A stretch of DNA of 64,000 bases from Convolutriloba macropyga. Its lineage: Eukaryota. The DNA lies in assembly GCF_964194025.1 (NCBI RefSeq), contig NC_134479.1, positions 25,916,001-25,980,000 on the forward strand. Reading direction: 5' to 3'. Under the pieces are notes generated by a model that saw only the letters and a list, made by a program, of their open reading frames with translations, searched no databases and was not told the DNA's origin. Made by a program: the position numbers and the translations under genes. This document shows positions 39,737 through 59,241 of this stretch, piece by piece. The stretch's first letter is position 1. The number at the start of each line of letters is the position of its first letter.

Positions 39737-40352
39737 TGATACGCACTCACTTTTAGAAGATGTTTCCATGTTGTTATTGAGATAAATTATAGAAATAACT
39801 GGGAAGATTTATTGTCATTTTCAAGGACTTATTTTGATGTTTCACAGTGCGATTTTTAGCGGATATATTTTTAAATAAAATCAGCTAGAAACAACCTTTT
39901 ACTGTGCGGTTCGGATGCGCCATATATCTACTAGTTGCCTTGGTTTTTAGAGCTTCGTTAGTCGTAATTTCAGCTCTAATGAAGTCGGCTCAAACTTAGA
40001 GTTTTCGAAAGAATTTCCAGTTCAATCTTTTATTATCAACTGATCTCTGAGTAGGTTTTCCGGTCCATAATCTCTCAAGAAGTTATTTACTAATTATGCG
40101 AATTTATCTTCAAGAAACTCAAAAAAGTAAATAGTGAGGCTTTTAGGCCTTTGATATGTTTATCAGTAAACTGTCAATCTACGGTTATTTTTCATAAACA
40201 TATACAAATACGGGGTTACAGGCTTATATGGGAACACTAGCTATATATGGTCTTGAAATCTATTTGAAATTGAACTAAATTAAAGCACTTATTTGTGGAC
40301 ATTTAAAGGAATATCATCACGTAGATATGAGGCACGAAATAGGGGAGTGACA
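39737..40352 (-). repeat. 3' LTR of nested minus-strand element (616 bp, two internal deletions relative to 5' LTR)
   Basis: TGATACG..ACTTTTAGAAGATGTTT ... AATAGGGGAGTGACA; collinear with 58,402-59,241. Confidence 0.92.
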
Positions 40353-40949
40353 CTACCGGACTTTATGAAAATTTTCCATGAAAATTTTGAGAAGGAACTG
40401 GGTTTTACAATTTTTCAATAAAACATATAATCTGCACGAGTAATAGGGTATACTTATGTTTTTGTTGGAGCCACCCAATTTCTGTTTTTTTAGAAAGAGA
40501 GTTTTAAACGAAAGCATTGAAGTTAAAAAAGTTAAAGAATGTAAAAGAAATAAAGTTTAAGTTGAGATAAGGTTAAAATGAAGAAGGTTAAGACAAGATT
40601 AAAAGCTTTGAAGGAACATTTGAAACATTAAAATGCGCTAATTTTGGAACAAAGGGTGAGAACATAAGTTAAGGTTAAGGTTAAGAGAAGATGTTGGAAT
40701 TAGCACTGAAAATAATTATGGTTATTTCACTGGATACGGGCTCTAAACTTAGAATGATATAGAAGAATTGTACTGGCTGCATAAATGATTTAAAGCACTG
40801 GTTATTATCGTGCATTTGAAGCTCTAGTTTTGAATAGAGAAGCACTGAGAAGGCAAACTTAATAAATGAAGGGATACATAGTTGGTTTAAAGAATAATAC
40901 TTGTCGAACTATATAAGTCTTTCAAGAGTTTAAAGAATACTCTCCTCTC

Positions 40950-43211
40950 GTGGTAAAGCTTGGATGTCTTGCTCATCATCTGTGTTAAATCTGTCGAGTG
41001 TATTCAGTGACAGTGTTGGAGTTGCGGGCATAGAGTTTCGTCGTTGCTGTCGTTTATTAGTTCCCATTTTTTTCTGCAGAGATGACTGTTGGTGATTTCA
41101 TGAGTTGTTTCGCGAGATTTGAAACTACTTCAGCTTTCACATGTTTCGGTACGGAAACTACTGGATTAAGAGGTAAATTGTTTCCATTAAGCGTCATGAA
41201 GTTTAATGCCATTCGTACAAAAGCTACTTTATGTTATAAATACATGAAGATGATATGTAAGGCTAAGTTTCCGATAAAGACAATGATTGTTAACAAAAGA
41301 GAAAGCTTGATGGGTACGTAAGATTTAAGTTTATCAATTATTGCTGGTTTAAATGACTTCATTTTGGTAGTAATGGGCTTTGCTAATGATAACTTTCTTT
41401 TGATCATAACGTCCAATGATTCCGTTGATAACTTTCGATTGGAATAAATGAATTCTGTGTTAACTTTCTTCAGTAAATTGAGGTTTGCGTCTGTGCTTGT
41501 TTCGTTTTTTGTAGCTCGCTTATGTTTGGCATTGAGTCAATTAAATGATCCAGTGGTGCAAGCAATTTCACATTGATTCTTTTCGCTGGAAGGTACTGAC
41601 AACTTTGTAAATCAGCTCTAATTTTAATATGGTCACTGAACATTGTATGTCCACATTATAATGTGATTCAACAGATCTTACAACCTTTATGAGGCATGTT
41701 GGTTTGTCGGCCATTCTCGTCAATACCAATCTCATTAAGAGGAAAATCACTTGAAGCTGATGTGAGTAGCCAAATTCCGTATCCAAGATTCTGTGCTCGT
41801 TCTGGGATAGGTAACACAACCTTCTCTATGTCACATATATTCAATGCTGTAAGTGCATGATGAAACTTGAGGGTTGCTAGGCACGAGGAGAATCCAAGGT
41901 GGGTTTCCCTTCTCTCGTGACAGATTCGGTATCGTAGCGATCCAAGGCAGTTGTCGTACTGGGATCTCGTCAGTACTGTTGTTTCCATCTGTCCTCCTGA
42001 GATTGCTAGGTATTCTCCTTCAATCACCCATTGTAAGGCATCAACTGAGTCTTTCTGGGGCATAGGGATTACATTTGCACAATAGACTTCAAACACTGTC
42101 TGGCTAGAGGCTAAAAGAATGGCTAGTGTCAGTAAAAGTCCGTCTTCTACTGTCGAAATCTCTTGTACAAGTTTCGCGTTGTTTATAAGAAAGTGTGTCA
42201 GTCATGGGTATTGCCAAAGTTAGACGATCTGGGGCGTTTTTTTGACTATCATGAACTGCATCAAGGATCTTTATCAAAGATTTACGAAGTACTTACGATA
42301 GCATTTATAACAATAATTCGGAAAAATTATAAAGCTGCTCGATAACTTTTAATGTCTGCATAAAGTGTAAGAAGTAATGATGCTGCTGTGTCAAAATTAA
42401 ATTTATTTCGGTGCTGCGTTGCTTGAATTTCCATGCAGGTTGCTAATTCATTTAGATTGTGATCTACGATTGCGAATTGTTCCTCAACTAGTTTCCAGTT
42501 TCTGTTCTGGTTTTCTCGCATTTCGTTTTGAACTTTAAAAACCTTTGTAAGTTCGTCAGCAATTAGAAAGAATTTTTCGTCTGTTTCTGCGCCGTTTTCC
42601 ATGACATAGTCTTTAAGGTTAATAAAACTGTTAGCTAGTCTATCGATGTTTTCAGCATTTTGAGACGTTCGTTGGCACGAGCTGAAAATTCCTGCGATTC
42701 CACTGCATCTTCCGCTGCTCATTGCTATTCCTGGACCGGAGAGTCCAATTCCAGCAACTGCGGCAGCTATAGCAAGCGAGGCGGCTGTCTTTTTTCGATT
42801 TGGGTGTCCTCTTCGACTCTTGTAAGGAAATTTTTGGTCTCGTTCCGCAGTTTGAAGACTTCAATTTCGGCTTCAATTGTTTCATTGAGTATTTTCGTGT
42901 AAAGCCAATCAGCATTGAAAACCTCTCTTTGCTTTTCATAAGTAATACTGTGTGTCATATTGCAGAACTCTGACTTAGTAATTCATTAACTTGAGAGTTC
43001 ATGAATTAGAGTTGGAGTCTACTTGGTGTCGCACAGTAAAGTTATAGCGGGGAAACGGGACTAAAAACTCCGCGTTTATGAACTTCTCAGTGATAAGGAT
43101 CTTTCCTTCCTTGTGGAAGATTATTCCTTGGGCCGGCGTTTCTTCTGTGTTGACTGGAGTCTCAAAATTGGCGCCGAAAAGTACGAGATTTATTACGATG
43201 GTAAGTAACAT
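40950..43211 (-). pseudogene. env: Envelope / class I fusion glycoprotein (errantivirus-env / baculovirus-F-like), disrupted
   Basis: Signal peptide MLLTIVINLVLFGA; GIIFHKEGKILITE; cleavage site RKK(T) at 42,797-42,786 (one base from RKKR) directly followed by fusion peptide AASLAIAAAVAGIGLSGPGIAM; heptad helix (42,327-42,722); Cys-rich domain (41,668-42,096); TM LSLLLTIIVFIGNLALHIIFMYL; cytoplasmic tail. Confidence 0.85.
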
Positions 43212-57161: not shown

Positions 57162-58388
57162 TTTGCTTTTTACCCAATTCGATTATATACTTAACGTTCA
57201 ATCAGTCTTACTTTGGTTCTCAGTTATTAAATAGCACATTTAACTTAACTTAATGGGGAGGTTGAGTGGCTTTAAGAGATGGAAAAGATTAAATGAATAA
57301 CACAAGAATATCAGGAAAGAAACTACTGAAACCATTCGTTCAGAAAATAATAAAGATGGGCTGCTTATGAACCTATTCCTAAAGCTCCGGTCAACTCGTC
57401 AGACTTATATCGTTGAAGCCGTATGGGCCGCCGAAGTCTCACCTCTAAAAAGTGCCCCTTAGTCTAGGAAAATTCGTGGAAACCACGACCGCACATGCCA
57501 TTTGGAAGCTCCAATATGGTAGGCAACAGCATATTGACCGAAGTCACTGTTTGATTCATTAACCTCCGGAGCTGGGTGTGGAACTAAATATAATTATTTT
57601 TAATTTTCTATGTAAACTTTTGTTTTGCCCTCTTTTAATTAATGTTTATGTTATGGTTTCAGTAATTCAGCTTCTTCTGGTGTTATCTGATAATCAGTAA
57701 TGATGTTGTCAAGGTTAATTTCTTTATCAGATTGAAGTTAGTTACGAATAAGGCCAAATTTGCGAGATTTCTTATTTAAACTTTTTTGCTGTCCAATAAA
57801 TTGCAACACCTTTGTCATCTTTATCTAGCACATAAGTTACGATGGGTATACAAACTGAAGAAGAGAAAGTGGTTACTATCTGAGCTTGCGTTTTGTTACT
57901 GTTTTGCGTGTAGTTAAAATTATTTCGATCAATATGTTCAACAAAATTGGGGAAGCGCGACAATTATTGATAGCGGGCAGAATTTGTTCTTTATAAATTG
58001 ACATAAATAAAGCACCAAAGATTAATTTTACAAATTCATTTACTCACAACATGCTCATTTGTAAATACCCTGTGTTGTTTTTGTCCGTTGTGGCGGCTGT
58101 GGTTGAGTTTGTTCCAGATATTGCCCACTCAAACACTTTTGAATTGTTATTGCATTTAGTCCACAAAGACACAAACACAGTTTTCACCAATTCTTTCCTT
58201 TGTTATCGCTTTTCGCATTATCGTCTTGCTCGGAAAGGGAGAACTGGATGCTGGTTCTTGATGATTGAAGGTTCTTAAGGTAATGAAGAGGAAGAAGACA
58301 AAGAAAATGTCGAAAAAAGGAAGAAACTATCGAAATTATCAAGGAATTATTCGGAATTTTGGTCCGTTAAACTGGGAAACAGTTAATA

Positions 58389-58401
58389 ACTCCTGTCACC
58401 A
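58389..58401 (-). promoter_or_regulatory. Primer binding site, tRNA-Leu-like
   Basis: Minus strand TGGTGACAGGAGT immediately after the LTR; 12/13 match to the complement of the eukaryotic tRNA-Leu(CAG) 3' end (TGGTGTCAGGAGT, from recall). Confidence 0.7.
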
Positions 58402-59241
58402 TGTTAAGCCATGACTTTTAGAAGATGTTTTCATGGTGTTATTGAGACAAATTATAGAAATAACGGGGCAGATTTACTGTCATTTTTCAAGGACTTATTT
58501 TGATGTTTCACAGTGCATTTTTTAGCGGATAAATTTTTAAATAAAGTTAGCTAGAAACAGCCTTTTAATGAGCGGTTCGGATGCGCAATATATTCACTAG
58601 TTGCCTTGGTTTTTAGAGCTTTGTTAGTACTAATTTCAACTCTAATGAAGTCGGCTCAAACTTTGAGTTTTCGAAAGAATTTCCAGTTCAATCTTTTAAT
58701 ACTATGCAAAAAGAACAAAAGTAAAGTTTCAATGATAGAAAGAAGGTTTTCTGAGTTTATTATCAACTGATCTCTGTGTAGGTTCTCCGGTGTTCTGGTC
58801 CCTGTGGGTTCCGTAGGACTGTGCCTCGAGTTGTATTGGTCCTCCGCAAATGTTTACTAATCTACAAGTTTTGTACGTCTCTTGATGTTTGTTAAGTACA
58901 TATACAAGTTCCGTATTAGCACCTGCTTTATCAGAATAATTACAGAACCAAGTACATAATCTCTCGAGAAGTTTTTTACTAATTATCCGAATTTATCTTC
59001 AAGTAACTCAAAAAAGTAAAAAGTGAGGCTTTTAGGTCTTTGATATGTTTATCAGTAAACTGTCAATCTACGGTTATTTTTCATAAACATATACAAATAG
59101 GGGGTTACAGGCTTATATGGGAACACTAGCTATATATGGCCCTGAGATCTATTTGAATTTGAACTAAATTAAAGCACTTATTTATGGATATTTAAAGGAA
59201 TATCATCACGTAACTATGAGGAATGAAATAGGGGCGTGACC
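58402..59241 (-). repeat. 5' LTR of nested minus-strand element (840 bp)
   Basis: TGTTAAG..ACTTTTAGAAGATGTTT ... AATAGGGGCGTGACC; collinear with 39,737-40,352. Confidence 0.92.

Follow-up and report, generated by a model that had tools for sequence, protein, structure and literature searches.

The window analysed here, 64,000 nucleotides of Convolutriloba macropyga DNA (positions 25916001-25980000 of contig NC_134479.1, in a genome of 1.18 Gb), carries on its minus strand an old, broken copy of a multi-copy Ty3/Gypsy family; the copy is genuine and not a chimera. Comparison with its relatives established the architecture of an env-bearing retroelement with accessory genes, its recent spread, purifying selection on the accessory genes, the splice dinucleotides and intron phases of a gene antisense to the element, and the alternation of OTU-like and JmjC-like genes in one slot between pol and env. 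The family, called family A here, transposed recently, and young copies with open gag, pol and env are present in this genome. On balance we consider it probable that the accessory enzymes of this family, whose env is of the F type, strip host defensive marks.

Natural copies of the element

A genome-wide search with a 294-bp piece of the long terminal repeat (LTR) gave 768 candidate places and a search with a piece of env gave 1,625, with a stop-free 765-codon frame in 16 among the 150 env matches listed. Twelve copies were fetched, five chosen by LTR and seven by env. Three of them were colinear over their full length of 18.7 kb at 92-95% identity. The LTR pairs of the four young copies measured were 98.6-99.7% identical, and clean 5-bp target-site duplications (TSDs) flanked four of five young copies and all three sister-family copies. 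The open natural copy consists of an 866-bp LTR (TG...CA in intact copies), a 1.2-kb leader, gag of 424 codons, pol of 1,937 codons, a gap of 5.8 kb, env of 765 codons and the second LTR. Pfam placed the protease (PR) at residues 99-193 of an intact-copy Pol, the reverse transcriptase (RT; RVT_1) at 524-688, RNase H (RH) at 754-886 and the H2C2 and rve domains of the integrase (IN) at 1095-1152 and 1173-1263. The PR-RT-RH-IN order, TG...CA LTRs, short TSDs and tRNA primer-binding site (PBS) place the family in Ty3/Gypsy (Metaviridae).

An earlier note on this DNA had proposed an enveloped, accessory-gene-rich Gypsy lineage as the ancestor of the window element. The lineage is supported and need not be only an ancestor, as young open copies exist. 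The note had also raised the possibility that other copies with these LTRs lack env or the macrodomain at the end of Pol, as expected if independent insertions had been joined. Among the five LTR-picked copies the macrodomain was found in three, env in three, both in two and neither in one that was truncated, and these copies are deletion forms of the same map; all seven env-picked copies had the macrodomain. The window copy is nested, duplicated and broken, as a chimera might be, but colinear full-length copies inserted elsewhere, each flanked by a TSD of its own, refute that origin and we give it next to no probability.

A predicted spliced gene antisense to the element

The 5.8-kb cargo that the earlier note had placed between pol and env held up, and it is now resolved into antisense genes, which the note had not seen, and three diverged repeats. 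On the opposite strand of the intact copy L034 an ATG-led exon ending in GT is followed by three more exons (5219-5628, 5740-5999, 6073-6236 and 6315-6518). The predicted exons of the window copy lie on the plus strand. Exon 1 (44413..44819) holds the ATG and the His residues of the putative integrase-type zinc finger, exon 2 (44922..45182) the CxxC of the finger and the candidate OTU catalytic Cys codon at 45137, exon 3 (45255..45419) the predicted OTU helices up to a conserved Trp, and exon 4 (45498..45703) the His-Cys-Glu-Pro motif, with its His codon at 45671; exons 2, 3 and 4 are frameshifted here. No clear donor was found for an upstream antisense exon. Searches with exon 1 and exon 4 each returned at least 150 scored matches, the best mostly in frames of identical length. 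The six GT/AG splice dinucleotides were retained in 26, 24, 25, 25, 23 and 23 of 26 copies, and all four exons were open in 13 of the 26. Against the most diverged copies the introns were ~60-70% identical and the exons ~78-88%. The ratio of nonsynonymous to synonymous substitution (dN/dS) was 0.24 over 64 young-by-old copy pairs, which share history and are not independent, and 0.14-0.29 for the single exons, compared to 1.07-1.42 in four control frames. The mirror frame gave 0.33, as expected because it shares third positions.

Sixteen weaker matches were fetched as well. Three were decayed loci nearer family A and 13 belonged to three other families, B, C and D, whose env is 30-46% identical to that of A. 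The gene again lay past pol on the opposite strand, with env on its far side in 12 of the 13. The exon proteins of these families were 20-37% identical to the focal one, and the intron positions and phases (2/1/0) were common to all four families, with one copy each of B, C and D examined.

To assign the domains, a profile of the exons of the four families, with X at the junctions, was aligned to the OTU domains of this genome (Pfam PF02338). The hhalign probability was 97.2 and the score 71; the maximum after shuffling the columns 30 times was 20.5, and unrelated alignments, four in all, reached 10-18. The alignment put Cys on Cys and His on His; the Cys codon is kept in 25 and the His codon in 23 of 26 copies. 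The N-terminal part aligned with the integrase H2C2 finger at H, H and CxxC (probability 65, score 32 versus 18.7), the second Cys of the CxxC being invariant and the first not. From these alignments we predict that the antisense gene encodes an integrase-type zinc finger and an OTU-like cysteine protease. Structure searches with a model of the gene returned weak rows, among which OTU chains made up 11 of the 43 listed by Foldseek, including ranks 1 and 2 (best E 1.3, with no known OTU in the alignment), and 3 of the 50 VIA rows listed (Z 3.4-3.9, root-mean-square deviation 3.7-3.8, 59-64 aligned).

A search of database proteins for a full-length spliced product found none. An exon-2 profile searched against the longer proteins gave four matches of 161-165 residues, and the one inspected reads through an intron. 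An exon-4 profile gave 25 matches among 1.84 billion proteins, mostly lone exon-sized open reading frames (ORFs) of the same kind, and nothing among PDB sequences. In four sequencing runs (one study, kind not recorded) the introns were covered like exons, and the 15 joints shown out of 209 included none at a predicted intron; the coverage behaves like DNA and the runs are therefore uninformative on expression.

Most of the reference OTU domains (L085-L100, L118) lie in very long open frames of up to ~2,500 codons, and the one long OTU ORF that was checked has a Helitron N-terminal helicase-like domain. The H-W/F-E-P motif of these OTU domains resembles the H-C-E-P of the cassette, and they are a candidate donor.

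A JmjC-like gene in the same slot of sister families

In three sister-family copies of 13.6-13.8 kb, with LTRs 98-100% identical, an antisense JmjC-like ORF replaces the OTU-like gene. Further JmjC matches were fetched, and all ten lay antisense directly past integrase and macrodomain, with env on the other side in eight within the 7 kb taken. Pfam JmjC_2 was matched by two of three tested (26.2 and 22.3 bits, cut-off 22), and two others were below the cut-off or had no match. The H-x-D/E...H iron-ligand motif is retained. The best PDB sequence matches of a three-row profile were KDM7A and PHF8 at E 6e-5 to 8e-3, too weak to name a subfamily.

Trees were built from the families of this genome and unnamed database proteins, and the root of the integrase tree, which rests on a short long-branch row, was left unused. 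The macrodomain-bearing families formed one integrase clade (100/100). Two OTU families lie inside it: A, in a group with three JmjC families (99/92), and D, grouped with other ones (96/96). The env tree agreed on the groupings of A and D with JmjC families (100/99 and 100/100). Because A and D interleave with JmjC families in both trees, the cargo changed at least twice within the clade. The OTU-like gene is also present in families B and C, which lie outside it. Seven other env loci had short pol-env gaps and no macrodomain or cassette match. These simple gag-pol-env families (L111-L117) have a related F-type env (31-34% identical in the part tested), in several cases with a full open env frame, and make up a natural control group.

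Macrodomain, pol, gag and leader

The earlier note had listed a macrodomain as a unit apart from pol. The domain is real, and the separation did not stand: it is the in-frame C-terminus of Pol, forming the final 150 residues behind a long low-complexity linker (51638..52056 of the window, minus strand). A six-row profile matched human TARG1/OARD1 at E 4.8e-29, with the next family at 6e-9, making it a TARG1/OARD1-type macrodomain. Families A and J1 retain the Lys and Asp equivalent to Lys84 and Asp125, positions that we take to be the TARG1 catalytic pair; family D has lost the Asp. The dN/dS of the macrodomain against the window piece was 0.23, and at least nine of its matches, among 150 listed, terminate open frames of at least 1,870 codons. 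Among database relatives of Pol 11 of 120 have the macrodomain, and ten of the 11 are among those 63-76% identical in the RT region. A dUTPase-like match was seen in two database Pol relatives, P0247 (precomputed) and P0257 (under the cut-off). Public databases list macrodomains in some other Gypsy polyproteins, and fusion of a macrodomain to Pol is therefore not in itself to count as new.

The pol gene of the window copy (51638..55909, minus strand) is frameshifted and encodes PR, RH, IN, the linker and the macrodomain, with RT and the start of RNase H deleted. It is preceded by gag (55926..57182, minus strand), 424 codons stop-to-stop in intact copies and frameshifted here, for which the Pfam search was blank. 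An A-AAA-AAC run where pol overlaps the end of gag in intact copies is a likely -1 frameshift site. The extra ORF claimed for the leader proved to be real (57675..58004, minus strand; ~110 codons, broken in this copy). Its pooled dN/dS over 10 copies was 0.20 versus 1.54 and 1.19 in the other two frames, and it was also present in a fetched copy (L027:5032-5361, minus strand). Several Atlas neighbours of this ORF are lipocalin-like at scores of 0.84-0.87, a weak lead only. Sister family J2 has a 133-codon ORF in the leader position that looks similar by eye.

Env, the small membrane gene and the spacer

The env gene (40933..43220, minus strand) has 765 codons stop-to-stop in intact copies and is frameshifted in the window. 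It matched Pfam Baculo_F at E 5e-4, below the cut-off, and the env profile gave only weak heptad-region matches to PDB sequences. The protein has a hydrophobic N-terminus judged by eye to be a signal peptide, RQKR at 139 followed by an apolar run, and an anchor at ~640-662. An AlphaFold model from 45 sequences (predicted local distance difference test, pLDDT, 73) matched the F proteins of respiratory syncytial virus, Newcastle disease virus and henipavirus among PDB structures (best E 5e-8). Its BFVD matches, the best at 1e-21, were F-like proteins of baculoviruses and other viruses; the TM-scores among the top rows were low, 0.16-0.41 by query. By its modelled fold env is an F-type class I fusion protein, and the predicted signal peptide, furin site, fusion peptide and membrane anchor are those of an F-env errantivirus in the broad sense. 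A search of viral contigs gave 137 candidate stretches for env relatives, none of which was confirmed. A simple rule, which is a weak test, found no sense-strand splice acceptor within 260 nt upstream of env in seven of seven loci, simple families included.

A second antisense gene lies nearer env than the OTU-like gene (43590..43940, plus strand, end coordinate approximate; open for 44 codons here). Intact copies encode a small transmembrane protein of 101-115 residues with CCxNGT, several N-glycosylation motifs, one hydrophobic segment and a polybasic tail; in family A the N-terminus is MCFN and the hydrophobic segment is followed by 5-6 Arg, judged by eye. Its Pfam search was blank. The dN/dS was 0.14-0.52 in five pairs, indicating purifying selection. 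Two types of the gene, ~58% alike in DNA, are found within family A. As this gene and the spacer beside it (L034:4403-4705 versus L050 and others) are ~58% alike and the neighbouring exons are 95-98% alike in young copies, segments appear to have been exchanged within the family. A five-family profile found the gene in 6 of 10 JmjC-bearing loci. It is arranged head to head with env, at a distance of 160-390 bp in three families and of 1.9 kb in a fourth. A metagenome record from outside this genome (L125:185-421, minus strand) has a small membrane ORF antisense and upstream of env (E 6e-5); its env is 53% identical and it has no long DNA match to the fetched loci.

The remainder of the gap includes a non-coding spacer (46430..48750) with three diverged repeat cores of ~190 bp at a spacing of ~1.07 kb. 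Rfam gave no match in the spacer and none in 40 kb. The spacer repeat was considered as an independent mobile element, and this was unsupported: its 645 candidates amount to about three per element. Inside the gap (L034:4021-10000) there are 19 AATAAA/ATTAAA hexamers on the sense strand of the element, though full-length copies transpose.

The window copy and its insertion site

The 5' LTR of the window copy (58402..59241, minus strand) has lost its terminal TG by decay, and the 3' LTR (39735..40352, minus strand) has two internal deletions and is ~220 bp short. The pair differs at 51 of 618 aligned bases (8.3% divergence). The 13-nt PBS (58389..58401, minus strand), TGGTGACAGGAGT, is complementary to the tRNA-Leu 3' end with CCA, in agreement with the 3' ends of the tRNA-Leu genes of this genome plus CCA. 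A dense cluster of tRNA-Leu genes at ~12.19-12.27 Mb of another contig (C13; L120-L124) is the likely source of the primer. There is no clear polypurine tract ahead of the 3' LTR (40353-40375 of the window, minus strand), and young copies are alike in this; a TTTTCA-A-rich motif, similar in three families, occupies the site.

The gene order given in the earlier note, gag-PR-[RT lost]-RH-IN-macrodomain-gap-env, was confirmed on the minus strand. Every gene is disrupted by frameshifts or stops. A deletion at ~54657 spans Pol residues 430-805 in intact-copy numbering, removing the whole RT and the start of RNase H. The internal duplication was also found. It is a 2.6-kb tandem duplication (48376..53567) from the integrase core to the macrodomain and the start of the gap, with blocks at 48376-50976 and 50967-53567 that are 97.6% identical and a second macrodomain copy at 49028-49466. 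The size of ~17 kb claimed for the element without it was not upheld, the intact family being 18.7 kb long. The macrodomain and gap-start segment has been tandemly duplicated repeatedly, in independent copies and families (window; L001-L002, L013-L014, L102, L106).

The element inserted into an integrase-bearing LTR element on the plus strand, whose left part lies at 37749..39734 and which resumes at 59242. A second copy of this flanking element near 62020 shows the empty site and gives a 5-bp target, of which ~3 bases are kept in the flanks. Of the paired LTRs, PBS and TSD noted earlier the first two were found as described, and a clean TSD was not, as the target duplication of this copy is degraded. 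Elsewhere in the window, positions 1-14393 are a satellite array of 54 copies of a 267-bp unit, ~89% alike, 32461-32660 is a gap of 200 N, and 36120-37001 on the plus strand holds another Gypsy-like pol fragment with a 219-bp tandem duplication.

Proposed role of the accessory genes

The role that we propose can be divided into steps of differing strength. The cassette is very probably transcribed antisense and spliced, and its introns would survive reverse transcription because they lie antisense to the packaged RNA. It is likely, with somewhat less assurance, that the OTU domain would act as a ubiquitin or ubiquitin-like protease and the macrodomain as an ADP-ribose hydrolase delivered with Pol beside the integrase. 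That the targets would be host restriction or silencing marks, with JmjC removing methyl marks in the sister families, has in our judgement slightly better than an even chance. RNA viruses commonly use macrodomains and deubiquitinases against host defences; the pair in nidoviruses and the OTU in nairoviruses are analogues for this step. It is possible, though we lean against it, that env and the head-to-head cassette share an internal two-way promoter, comparable to the internal promoter of env in some Tor elements (PMC4402516), and more doubtful still that the integrase-like zinc finger would dock the protease on the integrase of the element itself. We prefer counter-defence over a replication aid because all three enzyme classes remove post-translational marks and because of the parallel with RNA viruses.

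If instead the genes are active as replication aids, the macrodomain and OTU would adjust how DNA is repaired where the element integrates, or would keep integrase stable, a part already suggested for the Ginger1 OTU and Ulp1 domains. The macrodomain is indeed fused behind integrase and the OTU-like domain to an integrase-type zinc finger, Helitrons of this genome carry OTU too, and such a role has been proposed for transposase-linked OTU domains (PMC2836005). However, a core aid should not be swapped for JmjC between close families, nor be absent from related env families, and two types of small membrane protein in one family are more like host interaction. We regard this explanation as unlikely, though it survives better than the others. 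Selection for some other role, in the tissue or stage of element expression or in a host cell state favouring passage through the germ line, is improbable. The head-to-head placement of the cassette and env in three families would agree with it, as in Tor elements env is expressed tissue-specifically from internal promoters (PMC4402516), and the single hydrophobic segment and polybasic tail of the small protein are like those of sORF2/FAST (PMC11952523). It leaves the recruitment of three different mark-removing enzyme classes unexplained, and the small protein, unlike sORF2, is antisense and has no myristoylation motif. That the gap is a neutral hitchhiker, the functionless remains of a Ginger-like or Helitron insertion, is very improbable: the domain pair does resemble a Ginger1 transposase without its DDE core and deletions of the OTU-like gene are common, but dN/dS is 0.24, the splice sites are kept and the exon structure is the same despite the low identity of the exon proteins between families.

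Several observations weigh against the removal of host marks by these enzymes. No host target emerges from these data. Pfam found nothing in the antisense gene, exon by exon or through the introns, the gene being split in short exons, and the AlphaFold model of one copy, read through the introns, had a pLDDT of 49.9 and no significant fold match. Compared with the reference OTUs, ~3 residues are missing from the loop that follows the conserved Trp, and the profile test has a narrow template because most of those references belong to one Helitron group. The match between the zinc finger and integrase is moderate, its probability of 65 dropping to 2.8 with a shallow nine-row template. The OTU-like gene is not needed in cis, since it is deleted in three of the seven env-picked copies, which have a full env frame. 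No macrodomain was seen in families B and C, the macrodomain of family D lacks the Asp of the catalytic position, and related env families thrive without macrodomain or cassette.

The fullest form of the counter-defence proposal is an enveloped invertebrate retrovirus-like lineage with an exchangeable, antisense, intron-bearing counter-defence locus, in which integrase carries an ADP-ribose eraser, families exchange a deubiquitinase for a JmjC demethylase and the reverse, and a diversifying small surface protein lies next to them, convergent with the macrodomain-plus-deubiquitinase strategy of RNA viruses. We place this somewhat short of an even chance. The lineage shows accessory genes of defined enzyme classes, under selection and exchanged between families, with the simple env families as an in-genome control. 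If the enzymes do erase host marks, ADP-ribosylation, ubiquitin and methylation would be indicated as anti-retroelement defences in an invertebrate, single-domain reagents would be at hand for testing this, and an animal retrotransposon would encode its own eraser of chromatin marks. The antisense placement would offer an RNA-replicating element a way to retain an intron-containing gene.

Comparison with known systems

Gypsy elements with F-env are already known, as are antisense ORFs in plant elements, rotifer elements with a variable ORF3 cargo and fish endogenous retroviruses (ERVs) with macro-domain ORFs. Searches of the open-access literature, which did not extend to Repbase or GyDB, turned up no enveloped Gypsy element described with an OTU or JmjC cassette. 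Env-bearing Gypsy elements are usually treated as simple three-gene elements, and the design of the largest survey misses long pol-env gaps. That survey, by Chary and Hayashi, reports F-env Ty3/Gypsy errantiviruses across metazoans (PMC13524379), which resemble the focal family in their gag-pol-env order, F-type env with furin site, fusion peptide and anchor, tRNA PBS and young multi-copy insertions. Its filters capped the pol-env distance at 1,000 nt, the total at 10 kb (extensions 3-5 kb) and the separation of LTR pairs at 14 kb (PMC13524379), limits that exclude an element of 18.7 kb with a gap of 5.8 kb. The available text of that paper does not contain the words macro, antisense or accessory.

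Ginger1 DNA transposons likewise combine an integrase-type H2C2 zinc finger with a C-terminal OTU in one intron-containing gene, and their transposase has a YPYY motif together with the finger (PMC2836005). Unlike Ginger1, the cassette gene has ~55 residues from the CxxC to the start of the OTU, leaving no room for a DDE core, has no rve match and lies antisense in an LTR element. Ginger1 is a possible source of the gene, and by its published description the cassette is not a member of it.

The plant elements Retand, Grande and RIRE2 (PMC11963269, PMC7264820) share a long region between pol and the 3' LTR (2.9-6.6 kb), conserved antisense ORFs and repeats. They differ in having no F-env and products of unknown function or TRP28, whereas the antisense gene of the focal element has predicted introns, a recognisable enzyme domain and a position between pol and env. 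The Burro giant Gypsy elements of planarians and the foamy-like ERVs of fish (PMC6431247) are alike in being large and having env and accessory domains that touch ubiquitin or apoptosis pathways, and epsilon-like fish ERVs (PMC4977317) are alike in their macro-domain ORFs. In Burro the extras are part of one sense polyprotein and the fish elements are Retroviridae, and in the available accounts no antisense OTU/JmjC slot is reported for any of them. The accounts of Oikopleura Tor (PMC4402516) and of sORF2 of the Drosophila MDG1 group (PMC11952523), as available, report no enzyme cargo. Features that the small membrane protein has in common with sORF2/FAST are its short ectodomain, single membrane segment and polybasic juxtamembrane run; sORF2 is on the sense strand and myristoylated, whereas the small membrane protein is antisense, starts with MCFN and is without the myristoylation motif (PMC11952523). 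The LTR elements of bdelloid rotifers (PMC5408684) likewise have exchangeable enzyme cargo past pol and, in the TelKA clade, a paramyxovirus-like F env. Their cargo, a GDSL esterase or DEDDy exonuclease, is an ORF3 that mostly replaces env, whereas the cargo of the focal family is antisense, additional to env and of classes predicted to erase marks.

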